Below are positions 1 to 63,531 of a DNA stretch of 64,000 nt, one piece after another (the first letter of the stretch is position 1; every line of letters starts with the position of its first letter). A model generated the notes under the pieces. The model did no database searches, was not told the DNA's origin, and worked only from the letters and a program-made list of their open reading frames with translations. The DNA lies in NCBI RefSeq assembly GCF_056746865.1, contig NZ_CM163382.1; one strand, given 5' to 3'. Position numbers and translations under genes: made by a program.

Positions 1-233
1 TCCCGTTCAATGTCAGCTTCTGAAATGACTGCGTTGAGGTTATAGCGGTTGATAGCAATGGCAGTTCGCTCGTCCAACGGCGTGTTATCTGGTTTCCCTT
101 TCAGATTGCCGGTGATCAATAAATTCAGCGGCAATTCGATATCAGCAGCCACCCCATCAACTTTTGGTGTATACCGAACGCTGATTCTTTCTTTCGGCGC
201 GACACTGCCGCCATTGTTGTTCATTTTGCTCAT
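1..233 (-). CDS. tssB: T6SS sheath small subunit TssB, N-terminal part; gene runs off the window start
   Basis: Manual minus-strand translation from ATG at 233..231 gives MSKMNNNGGSVAPKERISVRYTPKVDGVAADIELPLNLLITGNLKGKPDNTPLDERTAIAINRYNLNAVISEADIER with no stop, the TssB/VipA-type N-terminus (GSVAPKERI...ELPL). Absent from the ORF track because it is cut by the window edge. Confidence 0.75.
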   Translation of the reverse strand, partial: MSKMNNNGGSVAPKERISVRYTPKVDGVAADIELPLNLLITGNLKGKPDNTPLDERTAIAINRYNLNAVISEADIER

Positions 234-359
234 AAAAATGTTCCCGTTCAGGCCATGAGCACAGCATTTTCGTACTGCATAAAAATACCGAAGATACCGT
301 TTCAGTGGCAGTTAGATAATGTAACCTTCCTTCTGTTGTGATCGGTATTCTACTCATGA

Positions 360-935
360 AATAAAATATTAAAAGAACTATTTATATTTTAGAAAGAGAT
401 GTATTCTTCCTTGCTAATATATTATAGTGAAATAAATTTTGGTATTTATAGACTTGATGAATATGATTTTACGGTCAATAAAATGCCATAATATATTGAT
501 TTATATGTATTTATTAAATTTATTAATAAGTTTTATGTATGGTTTTATCAATTGATTAATTGCTGGCAATACATCATAAGGAATTCCTTTAAGGAATGTC
601 TTAATTGCGTGCTGGAACGATGGCTGAGTAAGTGTCGTAATAATTTGTTTTTGACGCGGCTGTGGATTTTTATGGGGGGAAGGATACGTTATGGATAATT
701 CTGCTGTTGAAGTTGATATATTTTTAGCTTATGTGACCGTGTTCTGAAATTGACTAAAAATATATTTAAACACCATAAAAGAGTTTTTCAGTAGGTGCTA
801 ATTACGTGTGCCTGTAACTCGAATAAAGAAAAGGGTGTGGTTCCTGATGTGAGCCGCATCACACTCTAACCCGTCGGGGATTAACGACGGGTTGTTCGTA
901 AAACAGCAGTTGATAATTTCACAAGGAGTTCATAA
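360..935. promoter_or_regulatory. AT-rich divergent intergenic region between tssB and hcp; likely carries both promoters
   Basis: About 575 bp with no credible ORF and strongly AT-rich sequence between divergently oriented T6SS genes. Confidence 0.3.
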
Positions 936-1454
936 ATGCCAACCCCATGTTACATTTCAATTACAGGTCAGACCCAGGGGAACATCACTGCCGGTGCTTT
1001 CACCGCAGATTCTGTCGGCAATATCTACGTGCAGGGACACGAAGATGAAATGCTGGTGCAGGAGTTTCTGCATAACGTTACTGTTCCAACCGATCCACAG
1101 TCTGGTCAACCTTCCGGGCAGCGCGCGCACAAACCGTTCATTTTCACCGTGGCGCTGAACAAAGCCGTTCCGCTGCTGTACAACGCGCTGGCCTCCGGTG
1201 AAATGCTGCCGAAAGTGGAGCTGCACTGGTGGCGTACTTCAGTTGAAGGCAAGCAGGAGCACTACTTCACCACACGTCTTACTGACGCGACGATTGTGGA
1301 CATGAACCTGCACATGCCGCACTGCCAGGACCCTGCACAGCGTGAGTTTACGCAATTGCTCGCAGTATCACTGGCATACCGTAAGGTTGAGTGGGAGCAC
1401 ATCAAATCCGGTACTTCTGGTGCCGATGACTGGCGTGCACCGCTGGAAGCATAA
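936..1454 (+). CDS. hcp: T6SS tube protein Hcp (TssD)
   Basis: 172-aa ORF MPTPCYISITGQTQGNITAGAF...HWWRTSVEGKQEHYFTTRLTDATIVDM, a typical Hcp1-family sequence. Confidence 0.9.
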   Translation: MPTPCYISITGQTQGNITAGAFTADSVGNIYVQGHEDEMLVQEFLHNVTVPTDPQSGQPSGQRAHKPFIFTVALNKAVPLLYNALASGEMLPKVELHWWRTSVEGKQEHYFTTRLTDATIVDMNLHMPHCQDPAQREFTQLLAVSLAYRKVEWEHIKSGTSGADDWRAPLEA

Positions 1455-1462
1455 ATCTGAGT

Positions 1463-1500
1463 CAACAACATCCTGCCTTCGTGCAGGATGTTGTTTTTGT
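1463..1500 (+). terminator. Rho-independent terminator after hcp
   Basis: Inverted repeat caacaacatcctgc / gcaggatgttgtt followed by a T-run. Confidence 0.6.
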
Positions 1501-1674
1501 ACGTGTAAAAAATGAGTGTCAGTAAGGAGTTACGCTTTCATGAGGGAGATGGCGGATGCCGGAAACCCGGGCGGTAGCGTACCTGAAAATGTAAAGATGA
1601 GTGTAACGCTGCACTGGCACCCTTTGCTGCATGGTAAGAATCATTTGGTCCGTGAATAAATCAGGGAGGTCATT

Positions 1675-3633
1675 ATGTCCTTAAAAGGTCTGCGCTTTAC
1701 GCTGGAGATTGACGGCCAGGAGCCGGACACCTTTGCAGTGGTGCATTTCAGGTTAATCCAGAACCAGTCTTATCCGTTTGTGATGAGTGTGGATGTTGCC
1801 AGCGACTCTTTTATGCAGACGGCGGAGATGCTGCTGGAGAAGAAGGCGACGCTGACCATCTGGCAGGGCGTCATCCCGCTGCGTTATGTCACCGGCGTGG
1901 TGGCGGGTTTTGGCATGCAGGAGAACAATGGCTGGCAGATGCGTTATCACCTGCGTATTGAGCCGCCGTTATGGCGGTGCGGGCTGCGGCAGAACTTCCG
2001 TATCTTCCAGCAGCAGGATATCCGGACGATATCGGCCACGTTACTGAACGAGAACGGCGTCACGGAGTGGACACCGCTGTTTTATGAGGACCATCCGGCG
2101 CGGGAGTTCTGTGTCCAGTACGGGGAAAGCGACCTGGCGTTTCTGGCGCGGTTGTGGGCGGAGGAGGGAATTTTCTTCTTTGAGCGGTTTGCGGCGGACA
2201 GTCCGGAGCAGAAGCTGACGCTGTGCGACGATGTGGCGGGGCTGTCACAGGCGGGAGAGCTTCCGTTTAACCCGGACACATCGGCAGGAGCGGAGACAGA
2301 GTGTGTCAGTATGTTCCGTTATGAGGCGTATGTCCGCCCGTCGTCGGTGCAGAGCCAGGATTACACGTTTAAGGTGCCGGACTGGCCGGGGATGTATGAG
2401 CAGCAGGGTGAGAACCTGAACGGACAGCTGGAGCAGTATGAGATATTTGATTATCCGGGAAGGTTCAAGGATGAACAGCACGGCAAGGATTTCACGCTGT
2501 ACCAGATGGAGAGCCTGCGCAGTGATGCGGAAAAGGCCACAGGGCAGAGTAATTCACCGAAGCTGTGGCCGGGAACGCGGTTTACGCTGACGGGGCATCC
2601 GCAGAAGATGCTGAACCGTGAATGGCAGGTGGTACAGAGTATTCTGTCAGGGGACCAGCCGCAGGCGCTGCACGGCAGCCAGGGGAGAGGAACCACGCTG
2701 GGAAATCAGTTAGAGGTGATACCGGCGGACCGGACGTGGCGTCCACGGCTGCAAAGCAAACCGAAGGTGGACGGGCCACAGAGCGCCATTGTCACCGGTC
2801 CTGCGGGAGAGGAAATCTTCTGCGACGAACACGGACGTGTGCGAGTGCAGTTTCACTGGGACAGGTATAACCCGGCAACGGAGGCGAGTTCATGCTGGGT
2901 GAGGGTGTCGCAGGCGTGGGCGGGGCCGGGATTTGGTAACCTGGCGATACCGCGCATCGGCCAGGAAGTGATTGTAGACTTCCTGAACGGCGACCCGGAC
3001 CAGCCGATAATCATGGGGCGGACGTACCATGAGGACAACCGTTCGCCGGGGAGTCTGCCGGGGACGAAGACGCAGATGACGATACGGTCGAAGACCTATA
3101 AAGGAAGCGGCTTTAATGAACTGCGGTTCGAGGACGCGACGGACAAGGAAGAAATTTACCTGCACGCACAGAAAAATATGCAAGTCGTTGTGCTGAACAG
3201 CAAGGATAAGCGGGTCAACTATGACCGGACGGTCAGCATCGGGCATGATGAATCCCTGGTGGTGGCAAATGACCGGAAAGTGACGGTTGAAGGTAAACAG
3301 GACCATAAAACCACCAAAGACCATGTCAGCCTGACAGAGGGCAATCAGGGGCTGGAGGTGAAAGGCGATCTGGCACAGAAAATAAGCGGCGCGCTGGGTA
3401 TCAGCGTACAGGGCGATATTGTTTTACAGAGCGACAGCAAAATCAGTCTGCGGGTGGGCGGTTCATTTGTGGTGATCCATTCCGGCGGCGTGGATATTAA
3501 GGGCGCGAAAATCAATCTTAACGGCGGAGGCAGTCCGGGAGACGTGATCCTGCCGATGCGCCCGGTGATCCTGAAAGCCGCAGCCGGAAGCGGGACAATG
3601 TTTGTGGCGCACTGCCCGAAGGAGGATAAGTGA
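1675..3633 (+). CDS. vgrG: T6SS spike protein VgrG (TssI)
   Basis: 652-aa ORF with the VgrG N-terminal region (LRFTLEIDGQEPDTFAVVHF...) and gp27/gp5-like content; directly downstream of hcp. Confidence 0.9.
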   Translation: MSLKGLRFTLEIDGQEPDTFAVVHFRLIQNQSYPFVMSVDVASDSFMQTAEMLLEKKATLTIWQGVIPLRYVTGVVAGFGMQENNGWQMRYHLRIEPPLWRCGLRQNFRIFQQQDIRTISATLLNENGVTEWTPLFYEDHPAREFCVQYGESDLAFLARLWAEEGIFFFERFAADSPEQKLTLCDDVAGLSQAGELPFNPDTSAGAETECVSMFRYEAYVRPSSVQSQDYTFKVPDWPGMYEQQGENLNGQLEQYEIFDYPGRFKDEQHGKDFTLYQMESLRSDAEKATGQSNSPKLWPGTRFTLTGHPQKMLNREWQVVQSILSGDQPQALHGSQGRGTTLGNQLEVIPADRTWRPRLQSKPKVDGPQSAIVTGPAGEEIFCDEHGRVRVQFHWDRYNPATEASSCWVRVSQAWAGPGFGNLAIPRIGQEVIVDFLNGDPDQPIIMGRTYHEDNRSPGSLPGTKTQMTIRSKTYKGSGFNELRFEDATDKEEIYLHAQKNMQVVVLNSKDKRVNYDRTVSIGHDESLVVANDRKVTVEGKQDHKTTKDHVSLTEGNQGLEVKGDLAQKISGALGISVQGDIVLQSDSKISLRVGGSFVVIHSGGVDIKGAKINLNGGGSPGDVILPMRPVILKAAAGSGTMFVAHCPKEDK

Positions 3634-7216: not shown

Positions 7217-8379
7217 AATTTTTTGTCGCTGATATTCCAGACAGGAAAACAATATGCCTTTAGCTGCCAGATTAAACGACAAAGGTACCGGCACAGGGAA
7301 AGATCACGTAACGCTGCTTTTTTGTACTAAATAATTCGCATTTTATGTTTAAAATTTGAGATATTCCTCATTACCTGAGGCTGTTTTTTATTACTTATAC
7401 ATGATCAAATACTCCTTACATAATTAAGGGGAACAAAATGGAACTTAAAAATTGATGGAACATATTTCTGTTATTCCCGATTACAGACAAGCCTGGAAAG
7501 TGGAACATAAATTGTCGGATATTCTACTGTTGACTATTTGTGCCGTTATTTCGGGTGCAGAAGGTTGGGAAGATATAGAGGATTTTGGGGAAACACATCT
7601 CGATTTTTTAAAACAATACGGTGATTTTGAAAATGGTATTCCTGTTCACGATACCATCGCCAGAGTTGTATCCTGTATCAGTCCTGCAAAATTTCACGAG
7701 TGCTTTATTAACTGGATGCGAGATTGCCATACTTCAGATGATAAAGACGTCATCGCAATTGATGGAAAAACGCTCCGGCACTCTTATGACAAGAGTCGCC
7801 GCAGGGGAGCGATTCATGTCATTAGTGCGTTCTCAACAATGCACAGCCTGGTCATCGGACAGATCAAGACGGATGAGAAAACCAATGAGATTACAGCTAT
7901 CCCAGAACTTCTTAACATGCTGGATATTAAAGGAAAAATCATCACAACTGATGCGATGGGTTGCCAGAAAGATATTGCAGAGAAGATACAAAAACAGGGC
8001 GGTGATTATTTATTCGCTGTAAAAGGAAATCAGGGGCGGCTTAATAAAGCCTTTGAGGAAAAATTCCCACTGAAAGAATTAAATAATCCAGAGCATGACA
8101 GTTACGCAATGAGTGAAAAGAGTCACGGCAGAGAAGAAATCCGTCTTCATATTGTTTGCGATGTCCCTGATGAACTTATTGATTTCACGTTTGAATGGAA
8201 AGGACTGAAGAAATTATGCGTGGCAGTCTCCTTTCGGTCCATAATAGCAGAACAAAAGAAAGAGCCAGAAATGACGGTCAGATATTATATCAGTTCTGCT
8301 GATTTAACCGCAGAGAAGTTCGCCACAGCAATCCGAAACCACTGGCACGTGGAGAATAAGCTGCACTGGCGTCTGGACG

Positions 8380-10270
8380 GTGTGCCGCAGGAACACAAGA
8401 TAGCTGCATAAGGATACGCAGTTAGCTTTTGTATAAGCTCATAAAGAGATGGTGGAAGGCCCACCGGGATCGGCTGTCGGAAGCAGATTCCAAACCACTT
8501 CATGCTGCTGTGGTAAAGAGCCATGGTAGTGAGCGATGAAGTAAAGCGTGAGTGAAAACTCAGCAGGTAAGATACTCATGAGACGAGTGAACCCGAACCC
8601 ATGTTGACGCGTCGTAAACCAGAGACTGACATCAAAACCGAAGGGGCGTCCAGCCTTCGGGATAAGTCTGCGAGTGAATTCCGAATGCTGCGCAGACGGT
8701 GTCCGGCGTAAAGTGGGCGTGACGGAGTATCAGGCTCTTCCTGGGAACTGCGGGAACCTGTCGTTGTGATGATAAGGGAGAAATGCAAGTCACTGAATTG
8801 GCGAGCATGAAAGTACCGATGCACAGCACAGGGACGGAGCCGTTCGTAGTAGTGATGAAGCTTCTGTAATGGAGGTGGAGCGAAGGGGCGGCATCAGACA
8901 GTCTTTGGACAGTGTTCAACTGAACATGTTCAGGAGGAGACAATGACAAAGACAAAAGCGTTTAACATTGATAAGTCACTGGTGGTCAGCGCGTACAGGC
9001 GAGTGAAGACCAGTGCAGGCGCGGCGGGAATTGATAAGCAATCGCTGGCGGACTTTGATAAACGGTTAGTTGATAATCTGTACAAAATCTGGAACCGACT
9101 TTCTTCAGGAAGTTATTTCCCACCGGCAGTGAAAGCGGTGGCAATTCCGAAGAAATTGGGTGGAGAGAGAATTCTGGGTATCCCGACAGTCAGCGATCGT
9201 ATCGCGCAGACGGTGGTAAAACTGGCCTTTGAGCCACAGGTTGAGCCACATTTTCTGGCAGACTCTTACGGCTACAGACCGAATAAATCGGCACTGGATG
9301 CTATAGGGGTAACGCGTAAGCGTTGCTGGTATTACGACTGGGTACTGGAATTTGACATCAAAGGGCTGTTCGATAACATCCCGCACGAACTGATAATGAA
9401 AGCCGTGGACAAACACAATCCGGCCCGGTGGGTAAAATTGTATATACAGCGGTGGCTGACAGCGCCGATGGTGATGTCAGACGGAGAAGTCAGAGCACGA
9501 ACAATGGGAACGCCGCAGGGAGGTGTCATAAGTCCGTTGCTGGCAAACCTGTTCATGCATTATGTGTTTGATAAATGGCTGGCAAAATATTATCCGAAAG
9601 TGCCGTGGTATCGATATGCTGATGATGGCATTTTGCATTGTCACAGCGAAGCAGAAGCGACTGAAATGCGAGAAGTATTACGCAAAAGATTTAGCGAATG
9701 CGGACTGGAAATGCATCCGGAGAAAACGCGAGTTATCTACTGCAAAGATGGAAGCCGGAAGGGTGATTATGAACATACCATGTTCGACTTTCTGGGGTAC
9801 ACATTCAGGCGACGCGTAGTAAAGAACGTTAAGCGAAACAGTCTGTTTGTAAGTTTTACCCCCGCAGCGAGCAAATCAGCGCTAAAGGCAATGCGTCGGG
9901 AAATCAAAGCGACAGGGATAAGGAAAAGAGTGGATTTAAGCATTGAGCAGATAGCGAAATGGATAAATCCAAAACTGAATGGCTGGATAAATTATTACGG
10001 GCGATATACCTGTTCGGAATTATACAGCGTGTTCAGATATATCAATAAAGCACTGGTGAGGTGGGGGCGTAAGAAATATAAAATGCTCAGCCGATACAAG
10101 ACAAGAGCCTCAAAATTTCTGGAAGAAATGGCGAAGCGAAGTCCACAGTTGTTTGCCCACTGGCGTCTGAAGATGAGAGGCGGACTTGTTTGATGGGAGC
10201 GGTATGAGCCGAGAGGTTCACGTACCGTTCTGCGAGAGGCTGCGGGGGAGGTTCCTGCGGCCTACTCACC
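8380..10270 (+). mobile_element. Group II intron (bacterial, with RT/maturase ORF)
   Basis: Boundaries from aligning interrupted copy 1 to uninterrupted copy 2: shared …cgtctggacg | intron starts GTGTGCCG … ends …cctactcacc | tggtaatgaatg resumes. Domain V-like GAGCCG…CGTACCGTTC lies just after the RT stop. Confidence 0.7.
8943..10193 (+). CDS. Group II intron-encoded reverse transcriptase/maturase
   Basis: 416-aa ORF with RT motifs (…RYADDG… YADD box) and a maturase X-domain motif (NGWINYYG). Confidence 0.85.
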
Positions 10271-10493
10271 TGGTAATGAATGAAGACGACTGCAAAATAA
10301 GAAGAGGAAATGCAGCAGAATTATTTTCAGGGATACGGCACATCGCTATTAATATTTTGACGAATGATAAGGTATTCAAGGCAGGGTTAAGACGTAAGAT
10401 GCGAAAAGCAGCCATGGACAGAAACTATCTGGCGTCAGTCCTTGCGGGGTGCGGGCTTTCGTAATCTTTCCCTGGATGTGAAAAGCAGCTGCG

Positions 10494-20862: not shown

Positions 20863-21360
20863 ATGTCTGAATATCGTCGTTATTACATCAAGGGGGGAAC
20901 ATGGTTTTTCACGGTAAATTTACGGAATCGTCGAAGCCAACTTTTGACCACCCAGTACCAGACACTCCGTAACGCCATTATTAAAGTTAAGCAGGCCAGA
21001 CCTTTTGAAATTAACGCCTGGGTAGTTTTGCCAGAGCATATGCACTGTATCTGGACATTACCCGAAAGTGATGATGATTTTTCCTCTCGCTGGCGGGAGA
21101 TTAAAAAGCAGTTCACCCATGCTTGCGGATTGAAAAATATCTGGCAACCGCGTTTTTGGGAGCATGCCATTCGCAATACAAAAGATTATCGCCATCATGT
21201 TGATTATATTTATATAAATCCAGTGAAACATGGCTGGGTAAAGCAGGTGAGTGATTGGCCATTCTCAACGTTCCATCGCGATGTAGCGCGAGGGTTATAT
21301 CCCATTGATTGGGCGGGAGACATAACGGATTTTAGTGCCGGGGAGCGTATTATTTTATAA
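20863..21360 (+). CDS. rayT: REP-associated tyrosine transposase RayT (YafM)
   Basis: 165-aa ORF MSEYRRYYIKGGTWFFTVNLRNRR…; IS200/IS605-like HuH fold; flanked by REP elements. Confidence 0.85.
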   Translation: MSEYRRYYIKGGTWFFTVNLRNRRSQLLTTQYQTLRNAIIKVKQARPFEINAWVVLPEHMHCIWTLPESDDDFSSRWREIKKQFTHACGLKNIWQPRFWEHAIRNTKDYRHHVDYIYINPVKHGWVKQVSDWPFSTFHRDVARGLYPIDWAGDITDFSAGERIIL

Positions 21361-21510: not shown

Positions 21511-23050
<1,540 letters not shown>

Positions 23051-29289: not shown

Positions 29290-29440
29290 GGCTTACTTTC
29301 TCTGCTGTAATGGTATGGGTGTTTCTGTGCACGCAAATCCGGCTGTGACACAAGGTGAGGTATTAAATAGAGGGGGAGTGAAAGGGGCAAATTATTAATA
29401 GGGTGAAGATATAATTAAATTATTAATGGGTGATATATCA

Positions 29441-29552
<112 letters not shown>

Positions 29553-45579: not shown

Positions 45580-45718
<139 letters not shown>

Positions 45719-51335: not shown

Positions 51336-52313
51336 ATGCAGGTCGGACTTACATCTTCGTCACTCGCCACCGGCGGCGCGCATAGCGCTGCGGTATCGTC
51401 GTCAACCGTTGCGCCCACTCAGGCGGTGCGGCAAAAACTCCCGGCGACGGCGAGTGAATATCCGGCCTCGCCGCTGATTACCACTCGCCCGCAGCGTTAC
51501 AGCGTGCAGCTTAACGACCAGCTCACCACGTTGCAGCAGGCGGATCACTATCTCGGGCAACTGGAGCAGCAGTTGCTCGATTATCGTCACAGCCAGCGCA
51601 AAGGCGGGCAGGCGCAGAGTTCGGCGCTGATGCAGATGCTGGACAAACGCACCGCGCTTTCCGGCGGTGCGGTGGACCGCCAGTTGCAGCCAGTGTTGCA
51701 GGGGGAAGCGCGGGTGACTTTTCACTCGCCGGATCTGGCGAATCTGGTACACAATCCCACGCCGGGAACGCGCATGTTCAGCGTCTCTGACGGGCGGCAG
51801 ACTCAGCTTTCGGCGGTGATGCTGTCTGAGGATGACAGCGCTGGGCAGTACCAGACGCGGCTGACCAACGCCCTGCGCCGCGTGGGCGTGCAGATGCATC
51901 AAAACGCCGATGGTATAAGTTTCTCCACCACTGAAAAACAGTGGCCCAACATTGAAAGCACCCTAAGCGTGCGCACCGATGGTGATAAATCAGCGTTTAT
52001 GCCACTAAAAACCTTTGCCGAACCGTCGCAGGCGGACCGCTTAGTGCAAAGCCTGCAACAGGGCGGAGCGGGGATTTCTCAGACGTTAGAAAGCATTAAT
52101 CAGCAGCGTGTGCAGATGGCGGTACAGCAGGAAAAGGCGCGGCAGTTGATCGACGGCATGTCGCGCTTCCCGCAAACGGAAAGCGCCGTGCAGGCGTCGG
52201 AAAATCTCGGCGGCGTGCTGGATAGCGCCAATCATAACTATCAGGTTTTATTGCAGGCGGTGAACGGTCAGGCGCGAATTTCCAGCCAGACGGTGAGGAG
52301 TTTATTGGGTTAG
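51336..52313 (+). CDS. lafW: Lateral-flagellar protein LafW-like (function uncertain)
   Basis: 325-aa ORF after flgL; assignment by position in the Flag-2 gene order. Confidence 0.5.
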   Translation: MQVGLTSSSLATGGAHSAAVSSSTVAPTQAVRQKLPATASEYPASPLITTRPQRYSVQLNDQLTTLQQADHYLGQLEQQLLDYRHSQRKGGQAQSSALMQMLDKRTALSGGAVDRQLQPVLQGEARVTFHSPDLANLVHNPTPGTRMFSVSDGRQTQLSAVMLSEDDSAGQYQTRLTNALRRVGVQMHQNADGISFSTTEKQWPNIESTLSVRTDGDKSAFMPLKTFAEPSQADRLVQSLQQGGAGISQTLESINQQRVQMAVQQEKARQLIDGMSRFPQTESAVQASENLGGVLDSANHNYQVLLQAVNGQARISSQTVRSLLG

Positions 52314-52334
52314 GGTTATTGTCATTGTTGCTTT

Positions 52335-52376
52335 TATAGCTATTAAGCTATAGTTTATCTATAGCATAAAAGCTAT
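52335..52376. promoter_or_regulatory. Tandem palindromic operator-like sites upstream of the toxin gene
   Basis: TATAGCtattaaGCTATA and TATAGCataaaaGCTAT, two inverted-repeat pairs ending about 10 bp before the toxin ATG. Confidence 0.55.
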
Positions 52377-52385
52377 GAGGGACCG

Positions 52386-52730
52386 ATGATGTGGGACGTC
52401 GAGACAACGGAGACTTTCGACAACTGGTTTGATGCCCAGACTGTTGCGCTGAAAGAAGATTTACTTGCTGCAATGCTGATTCTTGCTGAGTATGGCCCAC
52501 AGTTGGGCAGACCCTTTGCGGATACGGTTAATGATTCACAGTTTTCAAATATGAAAGAATTACGCGTCCAACATCAGGGAAACCCGGTACGTGCTTTTTT
52601 TGCTTTCGATCCTGCGCGCCGTGGCATTGTATTATGTGCGGGTGATAAAACGGGGTTAAATGAGAAAAAGTTTTATCGCGATATGATCAAGCTCGCTGAT
52701 TCTGAATACCGTAAGCATCTGAAAAAGTAA
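52386..52730 (+). CDS. Type II toxin, RelE/ParE superfamily (HigB-like)
   Basis: 114-aa ORF MMWDVETTETFDNWFDAQ…GNPVRAFFAFDPARRGIVLCAGDKTG…, the toxin class usually encoded upstream of an HTH antitoxin. Confidence 0.7.
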   Translation: MMWDVETTETFDNWFDAQTVALKEDLLAAMLILAEYGPQLGRPFADTVNDSQFSNMKELRVQHQGNPVRAFFAFDPARRGIVLCAGDKTGLNEKKFYRDMIKLADSEYRKHLKK

Positions 52731-52739
52731 GGAACGATA

Positions 52740-53039
52740 ATGGCTACTCTAAAAGAACTGATGGCAAAGCAAAGCCCTGAAAGCCAGGTGCGTATTGCGG
52801 CAAAAGTTGAGGAAATGCGCCAGACCATCGCCTTGCATCAGCTGAGAGAAGAACTCAATATTTCGCAAACGGAAATGGCGGCAGCGATGGGCATTAAGCA
52901 ACCGACTCTTGCAAAAATGGAGCAGGCAGATAACGATCCTCGGTTGTCTACGCTAAAACGCTATGTTGCGGCTTTAGGTGGGGAATTGAGTATCGACGTT
53001 AAACTGCCGAATGGTAAGAGAATTGCATTTCAGATTTAA
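52740..53039 (+). CDS. HTH (XRE-family) antitoxin, HigA-like
   Basis: 99-aa ORF 10 bp after the toxin; HTH segment LNISQTEMAAAMGIKQPTLAKME. Confidence 0.7.
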   Translation: MATLKELMAKQSPESQVRIAAKVEEMRQTIALHQLREELNISQTEMAAAMGIKQPTLAKMEQADNDPRLSTLKRYVAALGGELSIDVKLPNGKRIAFQI

Positions 53040-53057
53040 TTTTGGGGTGCATTTTAT

Positions 53058-53092
53058 GAACCGGATTAGATAAAACGGTATCTAATCCGGTA
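53058..53092. terminator. Bidirectional hairpin between the antitoxin gene and the lafZ-like gene
   Basis: accggattagata aaacgg tatctaatccggt, perfect 13-bp stem. Confidence 0.5.
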
Positions 53093-53096
53093 AACA

Positions 53097-53990
53097 TCAG
53101 CATTTCTGCACAGTATTTAACAACTTCTCTAAATTCTGATACATCGCGCTATTAATATCGCTATTCTGCCAGCTATCCACATTAAAAGTTAATTGCCAGC
53201 TACCGTTGCACTGGTTGCGCAGAACAATATCACTCTCCAGTCGGTTACGAACATATTTATAATAGGTTGTCATTGTCATATTATGCGCTGACAATAAATT
53301 ATCGAGTTTGTCTTTTCCTGGTGCGAGGGTTTGTGACAGTAACGGTACGGAATTATTTTCCTTTCCAGAACTAAGATGAAATATTTTTATTCTTGGACTG
53401 TTAATTGACTCTTTTACCAGTTGCGGGGCGTCAGGTGTACTTTTCAAGTGTGAATACCCCACGGTTGAGCCAACCAATATAACAGCTGCGGCCAACGCTA
53501 ACCCCATCAGTCCTTTATGTTTTTTTCTAACAGGCACATACGGTGTTGTCGAAGATATCTCTTCTGGGGCTGTATCCTGTATCTGGTCGGTAATAATCAG
53601 CGCTTCTGCAGGCGATGACTCCGGCAAAGACACATACTCTTTATTGCATAAGTAACCTTTCTTCGGAATTGTTTTAATAATGTTCTGTTGTTTGCCATCA
53701 TCGTCGATAGCAACGCGCAACGCATGGATCGCCGTCGGCAGGCTGTTTCCGCCGACAATACGGTTCTTCCATACTTCGGCACATAAATAAGATCGCGATA
53801 AAACCACATCGGCATTTTTTGCTAATGTTTCCAGCAAAATAAAATGGTATTCGCCGAGACGACGTGTTTCACCCGTTTCGCAATGTATTAAGGCATTAAG
53901 CGACGGGTCCATCCGCCAGTTGTTGATAATAATACTCATAGTTGAGTTTACCTTAGCAAGGGATAAATGTTTCCTGATAGTGCTTTGCAT
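53097..53990 (-). CDS. lafZ: ToxR/CadC-like membrane-anchored transcriptional regulator (LafZ-like)
   Basis: 297-aa ORF: N-terminal winged-helix OmpR/PhoB-type DNA-binding region, a single TM segment (GLMGLALAAAVILVGSTVGY) and a C-terminal periplasmic part. AT-rich. Confidence 0.6.
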   Translation of the reverse strand: MQSTIRKHLSLAKVNSTMSIIINNWRMDPSLNALIHCETGETRRLGEYHFILLETLAKNADVVLSRSYLCAEVWKNRIVGGNSLPTAIHALRVAIDDDGKQQNIIKTIPKKGYLCNKEYVSLPESSPAEALIITDQIQDTAPEEISSTTPYVPVRKKHKGLMGLALAAAVILVGSTVGYSHLKSTPDAPQLVKESINSPRIKIFHLSSGKENNSVPLLSQTLAPGKDKLDNLLSAHNMTMTTYYKYVRNRLESDIVLRNQCNGSWQLTFNVDSWQNSDINSAMYQNLEKLLNTVQKC

Positions 53991-62836: not shown

Positions 62837-63130
62837 ATGCATCGAATTCTTGCGGAAAAATCGGTCAATATCACTGAGTTACGTAAAAACCCAGCTAAAT
62901 ACTTTATTGATCAACCAGTTGCGGTTCTTTCTAATAATCGCCCCGCAGGATATCTCTTAAGTGCCAGCGCATTCGAAGCGTTAATGGACATGCTTGCTGA
63001 ACAAGAGGAGAAAAAGCCTATAAAGGCGCGCTTCCGTCCAAGTGCTGCAAGATTAGAGGAAATTACACGCCGAGCTGAAAAATATCTTAATGATATGACG
63101 GATGATGATTTCAATGACTTTAAGGAATAA
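62837..63130 (+). CDS. yafN: YafN antitoxin (Phd/YefM-like)
   Basis: 97-aa ORF downstream of dinB; size and position as K-12 YafN. Confidence 0.85.
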   Translation: MHRILAEKSVNITELRKNPAKYFIDQPVAVLSNNRPAGYLLSASAFEALMDMLAEQEEKKPIKARFRPSAARLEEITRRAEKYLNDMTDDDFNDFKE

Positions 63131-63132
63131 GG

Positions 63133-63531
63133 ATGCGGGTATTCAAAACAAAACTCATTCGCCTGCAACTTACAGCAGAGGAACTTGAAGCGTTAACGGC
63201 GGATTTTATTTCCTATAAGCGTGACGGTGTTTTGCCAGATATATTTGGTCGCGATGCACTCTACGACGACTCGTTTACCTGGCCATTAATCAAATTTGAG
63301 CGAGTTGCTCATATTCATCTGGCAAATTAGAATAATCCATTTCCGCCACAGTTGCGCCAATTCAGCAGAACGAATGACGAAGCGCATTTGGTATATTGTC
63401 AGGGTGCGTTTGATGAGCAAGCATGGTTGCTCATTGCCATTCTGAAACCTGAACCTCATAAACTGGCTCGAGATAACAACCAAATGCATAAAATTGGGAA
63501 AATGGCAGAAGCGTTTCGCATGCGTTTTTGA
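63133..63531 (+). pseudogene. yafO: yafO toxin gene interrupted by an in-frame amber codon
   Basis: 65 codons, then TAG at 63328..63330, then 66 further sense codons in the same frame to TGA at 63529..63531; total 132 codons, the size of K-12 YafO. Confidence 0.75.

Follow-up and report, generated by a model that had tools for sequence, protein, structure and literature searches.

A probable Gp49-domain HigB/XRE-HigA toxin–antitoxin cassette as a passenger between lafW and lafZ of the Flag-2 locus

The nearest tested relatives of the gene pair considered here are two plasmid-borne toxin–antitoxin (TA) modules. The pair lies between lafW and lafZ in the Flag-2 flagellar locus of contig NZ_CM163382.1 (RefSeq assembly GCF_056746865.1), within a 64,000-nucleotide stretch that we analysed as a whole and refer to as the window. 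The toxin of the IncC (IncA/C2) tad-ata module strongly inhibits growth and is a ribosome-dependent endoribonuclease; its residue G64 is essential, and tad-ata is an effective addiction module (Qi, Kamruzzaman & Iredell 2021, PMC8265657). In the HigBA2 module of the Acinetobacter baumannii plasmid pAB120, HigA2 forms a tight complex with HigB2 and blocks its RNase activity, the promoter is repressed by HigA2 with HigB2 enhancing the repression as co-repressor, and higBA maintains an unstable plasmid (Armalyte et al. 2018, PMC5906591). We place the window pair in the same company: with a probability of about 0.85, it is an intact, self-contained type II TA cassette of the Gp49-domain HigB/XRE-HigA group (Tad-Ata, 'higBA-type'), with a mechanism that we infer from homology.

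Compared with the two tested HigBA/Tad-Ata types, that of pAB120 from A. baumannii and that of IncC, the toxin is 57 to 60% and the antitoxin 40 to 52% identical. The IncC module shares with the window pair the toxin-first order, a Gp49-type RelE-fold toxin of 112–113 aa and an XRE-type helix-turn-helix (HTH) antitoxin of about 97–99 aa. Aligned over the full length with a single gap, its HigB is 60% identical to the window toxin, which retains the essential G64, and IncC-type loci (L057, L060 and L061) likewise carry TATAGG-N6-CCTATA-type palindromes upstream. The two differ in that antitoxin identity is only about 40%, the IncC operators are spaced at 16 bp where those of the window are spaced at 25 bp, and the arms of the palindromes have a different sixth base. 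Moreover, the IncC module sits on a conjugative plasmid backbone and was tested for addiction, whereas the window pair is chromosomal, lies inside a flagellar locus and is known from sequence. The pAB120 module has the same Gp49-HigB/XRE-HigA architecture. We compared it through a same-type 11-kb OXA-24 plasmid rather than pAB120 itself; the genes there, at 357 and 303 bp, have the lengths given in the paper. Here the toxins are 57% and the antitoxins 52% identical, and a TATAGA-N6-TCTATA palindrome again lies upstream. Unlike the window pair, this module shows one palindrome, is plasmid-borne and has overlapping genes, which are 9 nt apart in the window.

Further away stand the Mycobacterium tuberculosis modules HigBA2 (Rv2022c-Rv2021c) and HigBA3 (Rv3182-Rv3183), in which the toxins partnering HigA2 and HigA3 are Gp49-domain proteins (Armalyte 2018, PMC5906591). 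By sequence and fold together, the closest solved relatives of the window antitoxin are M. tuberculosis HigA3 (6lty, DNA-bound) and HigA2 (7ewc) and Streptococcus pneumoniae HigA (6af3). The mycobacterial matches are distant (sequence E about 2e-08; 32–35% identity in the fold comparison), and the sequence search found no solved toxin structure for either module. Vibrio cholerae HigB2-HigA2 (5ja8, 5jaa, 8a0x) resembles the window pair in its toxin-first order, a RelE-fold toxin of the same size and an HTH antitoxin acting on a palindromic operator (predicted in the window pair), and the window toxin model superposes on HigB2 over 112–117 columns with a template modelling (TM) score of about 0.6. 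However, aligned identity is 13–17%, and even a family profile finds no sequence homology at E up to 10, so the likeness is one of structure and working mode and not of family membership.

The canonical HigBA modules (Proteus vulgaris Rts1, E. coli K-12) and ParE have the RelE/ParE superfamily fold in common with the window toxin, and E. coli HigB (5ifg) is a weak structural match to it; HigB structures from E. coli and Shigella match the toxin model at E=0.04–0.2. The window toxin differs from both families in matching neither PF05015 nor PF05016. Canonical HigB of the Rts1/K-12 type was rejected on the Pfam result, with PF05015 missing from the toxin's matches at E up to 10. The gyrase-poisoning ParE family was likewise set aside: PF05016 is not matched, the partner is an XRE-HTH protein and not ParD, and the nearest tested relatives are RNases. 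HipB is an XRE-HTH protein like the window antitoxin, but this label fails as well, with the NF007271 HipB model scoring 25.9 bits against a cut-off of 79 and no hipA nearby.

The pair is already known, from PGAP annotation and from two Flag-2 papers. Archer et al. 2011 (PMC3032704) mention a toxin–antitoxin pair in Flag-2. De Maayer et al. 2020 (PMC6993521) define the lafW–lafZ gap as variable region 2 (VR2), and in their Table S3 list 'ParE, 113 aa' and 'HipB1, 99 aa', each in 46 strains, exclusively Escherichia, among 592 Flag-2 loci. Because the toxin lacks a PF05016 match, the HipB score falls below its cut-off and hipA is missing, these labels hold at the superfamily level only; an assignment to Gp49-HigB/Tad-Ata refines 'ParE/HipB'. 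No paper testing the pair was found. Beyond annotation hygiene, the significance of the finding is small.

The gene pair and its predicted operator

The lafW gene (51336..52313, + strand) ends in a TAG stop, and the toxin-like open reading frame (ORF) begins 75 bases downstream. On the other side, lafZ (53990..53097) lies on the opposite strand and converges on the antitoxin gene. The features of the cassette are as follows.

52314..53096, + strand: whole variable segment from the lafW stop to the lafZ stop (Flag-2 VR2) in its cassette allele, from alignment against empty genomes
52328..52333, + strand: inferred -35-like hexamer TTGCTT, in register with the TTG that is nearly invariant in the corresponding hexamers (TTGATT/TTGACA/TTGAAA) of 33 homologous upstream regions
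52335..52352, no strand: palindrome O1, TATAGCT-ATTA-AGCTATA (TATAGCTATTAAGCTATA), a perfect 7+7 inverted repeat, from repeat search, pattern match and conservation
52349..52354, + strand: inferred -10-like hexamer TATAGT, overlapping the right arm of O1, aligning with the conserved GCTATAAT of the homologues and matching TATAAT at 5 of 6 positions
52360..52377, no strand: palindrome O2, TATAGC-ATAAAA-GCTATG (TATAGCATAAAAGCTATG), with one mismatch to the pattern, from pattern match
52377..52382, + strand: Shine-Dalgarno sequence GAGGGA of the toxin gene, evident on inspection of the sequence and kept in the closest homologues
52389..52730, + strand: toxin gene, 113 aa, Gp49-domain RelE-fold protein, from Pfam, PHROG, fold model, homologues and PGAP
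52740..53039, + strand: antitoxin gene, 99 aa, XRE-type HTH protein with an N-terminal helical segment and a C-terminal beta-hairpin, from Pfam HTH_3 and structural relatives

The toxin matches Pfam Gp49 (PF05973, E=1.4e-20, residues 13–108) and PHROG 3445 'toxin' (E=1.3e-22), and PGAP names it (WP_000263532.1) a type II TA system RelE/ParE family toxin. An AlphaFold2 model with a predicted local distance difference test (pLDDT) score of 89.8 adopts a predicted RelE fold, and the top PDB matches in the fold search are RelE (4fxe) and, over the full length, V. cholerae HigB2 (5ja8/8a0x). All 37 invariant positions of a 21-sequence toxin alignment are retained by the window toxin; G64 is one such invariant residue and aligns without gaps with G64 of the IncC-type HigB. 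The family is widespread on plasmids, with 1972 PLSDB records, 1290 of them conjugative. The antitoxin matches Pfam HTH_3 (E=2e-12, residues 32–83), and its HTH matches in NCBIfam all fall below threshold.

The order and pairing of the genes recur in relatives. We fetched 80 loci from other species with relatives at 55–85% identity; an antitoxin homologue is present in all 80 and lies directly downstream of the toxin in 78, with the best antitoxin match of L068 and L076 found upstream on the opposite strand. In the window, the toxin stop and the antitoxin start are separated by 9 nt.

An earlier, sequence-only reading of this DNA had described a RelE/ParE-superfamily toxin followed by an XRE-type HTH antitoxin, in the order of higBA. 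The superfamily claim is upheld by the Gp49 match and the RelE-fold model, the arrangement is confirmed by HTH_3, the gene order and the 9-nt gap, and the Pfam search on both ORFs gives a Gp49 toxin and an HTH_3 antitoxin rather than unrelated families. The label 'HigB-like' stands insofar as the pair is HigBA-like; the toxin itself is not canonical HigB and belongs with the Gp49-domain HigB/Tad-Ata group. The ORF positions given there were also right, with the antitoxin at 52740..53039 and the longest toxin ORF at 52386..52730. This longest reading opens with ATGATG and encodes the 114 aa first reported; because PGAP places the start at the second ATG and every homologue begins with Met-Trp (MW), the gene is probably the 113-aa frame from 52389. 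Finally, the description of an AT-rich insert is correct relative to lafW, the 783-bp cassette segment having a GC content of 43.8% against 59.5% for lafW; lafZ is equally AT-rich, with a GC content of 41.9%.

The two palindromes upstream of the toxin gene stand 25 bp apart, start to start. At no more than one mismatch, the pattern TATAGC-N6-GCTATA has two matches in the window, O1 and O2, against 0.04 expected, and none of 100 shuffles of the window contains two or more. Relaxing the limit to three mismatches gives 21 sites against 16.4 expected, which is the chance level; since no further window sites rise above chance, there is no sign of the HTH protein targeting flagellar promoters.

The same arrangement extends across the family. 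Counting TATAGx-N6-x'CTATA sites with up to one mismatch within 80 nt upstream of the toxin start, we find at least one site in 64 of the 80 homologous loci and at least two in 33, compared with 0.005 per locus in dinucleotide shuffles. The upstream regions have a common layout in which a TTG-bearing -35 is followed by an 18-bp palindrome with a TATAAT-like -10 in its right arm, a position that the -10 keeps across the whole family, and in most of them a second palindrome precedes the Shine-Dalgarno sequence. Spacings between operators fall into two classes, 24–27 bp, to which the window pair belongs, and 16 bp. The sixth arm base covaries between subgroups (C..G, G..C, A..T, T..A). In a MAFFT alignment of 34 upstream regions, arm positions are complementary in 89.7% of cases, against 14–49% when the partner is slid, and the arm covariation score is 0.214 against 0.150 in shuffles, a value reached by none of 500. 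The sequence-only reading had proposed tandem palindromes as an autoregulatory operator, and their conservation at fixed offsets in other genera, together with complementary changes in the arms, bears this out at the level of prediction. The comparison thus supports the view that the tandem palindromes behave as a conserved predicted operator overlapping the inferred -10. The family-wide motif TATAGN-N6-NCTATA, mostly tandem and overlapping the -10, could seed the annotation of such modules. Rfam returned no RNA family within 52200..53200, so that reading the palindromes as an RNA element is unsupported.

The mechanism that we adopt is taken over from the pAB120 and IncC relatives; RNase activity was found for both, autorepression and co-repression for pAB120. 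A sigma-70 promoter (TTGCTT, 15 nt, TATAGT) would drive a bicistronic mRNA encoding first the toxin and then the antitoxin. An antitoxin dimer would bind both TATAGC-N6-GCTATA palindromes through its HTH, one overlapping the -10, the second overlapping the start region; this binding would repress the operon, probably with the toxin as co-repressor. The antitoxin would neutralise the toxin in a tight complex, and free toxin would act as an mRNA endoribonuclease that halts translation and growth. The cassette has every appearance of being intact: the 71 E. coli copies described below reach at least 99.7% identity, neither ORF is truncated, and the operator, the Shine-Dalgarno sequence and the gene spacing are in place.

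Several results weigh against this assignment. Each step of the mechanism would carry over to the window pair by homology at 40–60% identity. The antitoxin model reaches moderate confidence only (pLDDT 72), the toxin has no NCBIfam match, and PDB sequence searches with the toxin alone or with the 21-sequence profile (E up to 10) gave no match. The inferred spacer of 15 nt, although the same in the homologues, is below the optimal length, and a generic sigma-70 scan called no promoter in 52300..52388. In the interval between lafW and the toxin gene, the generic sigma-70 and terminator scan called no terminator either, and part of the transcription may therefore come from the flagellar operon.

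Distribution at the lafW–lafZ site

In sequence, the window is all but identical to E. coli 118UI. Of the 5426 complete E. coli genomes surveyed, 1272 have the lafW/lafZ junction, and 71 of these contain the intact cassette, each as a single chromosomal copy. Six plasmids have cassette copies at about 70% identity. Alignment against empty genomes shows that the cassette replaces the entire lafW–lafZ intergenic stretch, 783 bp standing in place of about 58 bp. In about 1150 junction-bearing genomes, the two stop codons are separated only by a hairpin of the repetitive extragenic palindromic (REP) type (GCCGGATAAGACGCG...CGTCGCATCCGGC). A third allele, present in 47 genomes and exemplified by E. 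coli CUVET21-1780 (L003, 1612..1920), consists of a REP hairpin preceded by codons 1–43 of a diverged antitoxin gene (56% identity to that of the window). Its left junction, TAGnGTTATTG, is common to the window allele. Because the third allele holds a diverged antitoxin, the site has hosted at least two members of the same TA family. The E. coli lafW–lafZ region thus occurs in three states: intact cassette, decayed diverged cassette with REP, and REP only. Roughly 90 nt preceding the decayed antitoxin in CUVET21-1780 were considered as a relic of a toxin 3′ end and gave no significant match. Neither target-site duplications nor direct repeats were found at the borders of the cassette; what differs from allele to allele is the intergenic segment as a whole.

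The flanks are at least 99% identical to the window in 70 genomes, essentially the carrier set, so that the cassette is the mark of a single Flag-2 haplotype. E. coli 042, the Flag-2 reference strain of Archer 2011 (PMC3032704) and De Maayer 2020 (PMC6993521), belongs to this haplotype and encodes the identical toxin WP_000263532.1. The same cassette occupies the same lafW/lafZ site in an E. albertii-labelled contig (GCA_049995945.1; L087, 4001..4651). Here the cassette and its non-coding operator region are 98–100% identical to the window and lafW, lafZ, lafA and lfgKL 84–91%, with identity falling near window positions 52300 and 53280. Since the cassette is much less diverged than its flanks, the comparison suggests recent exchange between E. 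coli and E. albertii rather than inheritance from a common ancestor.

In the 80 loci of other species, neither lafW nor lafZ was found within 4 kb of the pair. The nearest relatives, at 85% identity, are in Citrobacter, in a metabolic neighbourhood. Copies from Citrobacter and Kluyvera (L005–L009 and L013–L015; 77–85% identity) are the closest outside Escherichia and have a common downstream sequence, ...AAAACGTTAA...TGTTACACTGCG..., about 50–110 nt past the antitoxin stop. As the Citrobacter copies are flanked by a DUF1198 gene and a major facilitator superfamily (MFS) transporter gene, relatives of the cassette appear to occupy a fixed chromosomal site particular to these genera.

The sequence-only reading had noted that a TA module is not part of the canonical flagellar gene set and had taken the pair for a later acquisition. 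Comparison with other Flag-2 genomes agrees on both counts. The pair is found at 71 of 1272 E. coli junctions rather than at all of them, and none of the 80 other-species pairs lies near lafW/lafZ. Later acquisition is supported by this distribution and by a cassette that has diverged far less than its flanks in the E. albertii contig. The cassette is a mobile passenger in VR2, found in essentially one E. coli haplotype, 042 included, and in one E. albertii contig. It does not count among the flagellar components, and its presence can be explained without a role in Flag-2.

Alternative explanations

An unlikely alternative, though the one that survives best, is that the cassette is kept because it protects a deletion-prone Flag-2 locus, with deletants losing the labile antitoxin and dying. 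TA modules have been shown to protect superintegrons and integrative elements elsewhere. The cassette does lie within Flag-2, all 71 carriers retain the lafW and lafZ flanks, and 042 retains the locus despite a frameshifted lfgC. Tested relatives also act as plasmid addiction modules (PMC5906591, PMC8265657), but deletion of higBA did not destabilise pAB120 itself (PMC5906591). Furthermore, 1201 of the 1272 junction-bearing genomes (about 94%) lack an intact copy, so Flag-2 persists widely without the cassette, and in the 47 genomes of the third allele a related cassette has decayed in place while the flanking genes were retained. Because the carriers amount to essentially a single flank haplotype (99% identity or more in 70 genomes), co-retention of cassette and locus represents one lineage and not repeated evidence. 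A Flag-2-stabilising role is speculation, and we do not favour it.

Quite improbable, too, is an anti-phage abortive-infection module in which phage transcription shut-off would deplete the antitoxin and free the RNase. Some type II TA systems act by abortive infection, and two matches point in this direction: a weak one (E=1.6e-07) between the toxin and the C-terminal part of NsnC, a candidate defence protein in PADLOC, and the match to PHROG 3445, with homologues in a few phages and many plasmids. Neither protein, however, matches any PADLOC model over its full length; membership in a PADLOC defence system was rejected on this partial NsnC match. The neighbours are flagellar, with no adjacent defence genes, and the closest tested relatives are described as plasmid-addiction or stress-inducible modules and not as defence systems.

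We consider it similarly doubtful that the cassette is wired into Flag-2. Because no terminator was called after lafW, the late flagellar operon could read through, past the repressed promoter, into the toxin-first mRNA; expression or loss of Flag-2 would then shift the toxin:antitoxin balance, and the pair would serve as a checkpoint or an anti-deletion device for a second flagellar system that is costly and often lost. Were this so, repeated occupation of the site by different alleles would reflect selection for that role. If either stabilisation or read-through were true, the locus would be a modest case of a dispensable chromosomal island protected by a TA module.

It is very unlikely that the pair is an inactive relic, the toxin having lost its activity and the HTH protein persisting as an orphan repressor. 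Chromosomal TA copies often decay, as the relative at this very site has in 47 genomes, and the neighbouring yafO toxin gene is interrupted in the window. Against decay of the present cassette stand the full-length ORFs, the intact operator, Shine-Dalgarno sequence and gene spacing, and a toxin that has lost no family-invariant residue, G64 included. Its conservation at 98–100% between E. coli and the E. albertii contig, across flanks that differ by 9–16%, argues in the same direction.

The idea that the HTH protein regulates Flag-2 at flagellar promoters, with the upstream ORF an accessory factor and not a toxin, draws on the pair adjoining the regulator lafZ and lying upstream of lafA, and is highly improbable given that the window holds no other operator-like site at up to one mismatch and a chance number at up to three, that none of the 80 pairs of other species is within 4 kb of lafW or lafZ, and that the pair is missing from most Flag-2 loci.

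Surroundings of the cassette

One further element lies where the antitoxin gene and lafZ converge, between their stop codons.

53060..53091, no strand: hairpin with a perfect 13-bp stem and a 6-nt loop, from RNA folding

It folds at -19.2 kcal/mol (z = -4.1) and, lacking a T-run, is not a classical intrinsic terminator. The hairpin is absent from the cassette homologues of other genera and is not part of the mobile module there. Its ends, CCGGAT...ATCCGG, resemble the REP ends of cassette-free genomes (L002/L004, about 1620..1670), and it may be a diverged REP rather than a part of the cassette. A terminator call of the generic scan at 53024..53051 was weak and was discarded.

REP-like repeats of 36–39 nt occur in other intergenic regions in and around Flag-2, at about 17960, 20680, 22788..23047, 29437..29545, 43551, 45583..45716 and 48885. 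The gene for a REP-associated tyrosine transposase, rayT (20863..21360), lies just left of Flag-2. Between rayT and lfhA (the flhA homologue), at the left border of Flag-2, an IS3-family element, ISEc31, occupies 21519..22732; it is missing in E. coli 042, whose Flag-2 is otherwise 97.4–98.9% identical.

Just beyond the right end of Flag-2 lies the dinB-yafN-yafO-yafP operon. Its yafO gene (63133..63531) is split by an internal stop into ORFs 63133..63330 and 63352..63531, and yafN (62837..63130) is intact. With yafO split, this second TA module flanking Flag-2 is toxin-defective here; strain 118UI carries the same pseudogene according to PGAP.

The left end of the window (1..3576 and 7455..10464) contains the type VI secretion genes tssB, hcp and vgrG, the last truncated. 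It also holds an ISAs1 transposase pseudogene, with ltrA, encoding a group II intron reverse transcriptase/maturase (8943..10193), between its two fragments. Both the type VI secretion and the ISAs1/ltrA features were read from the annotation of 118UI, which corresponds 1:1 to the window.

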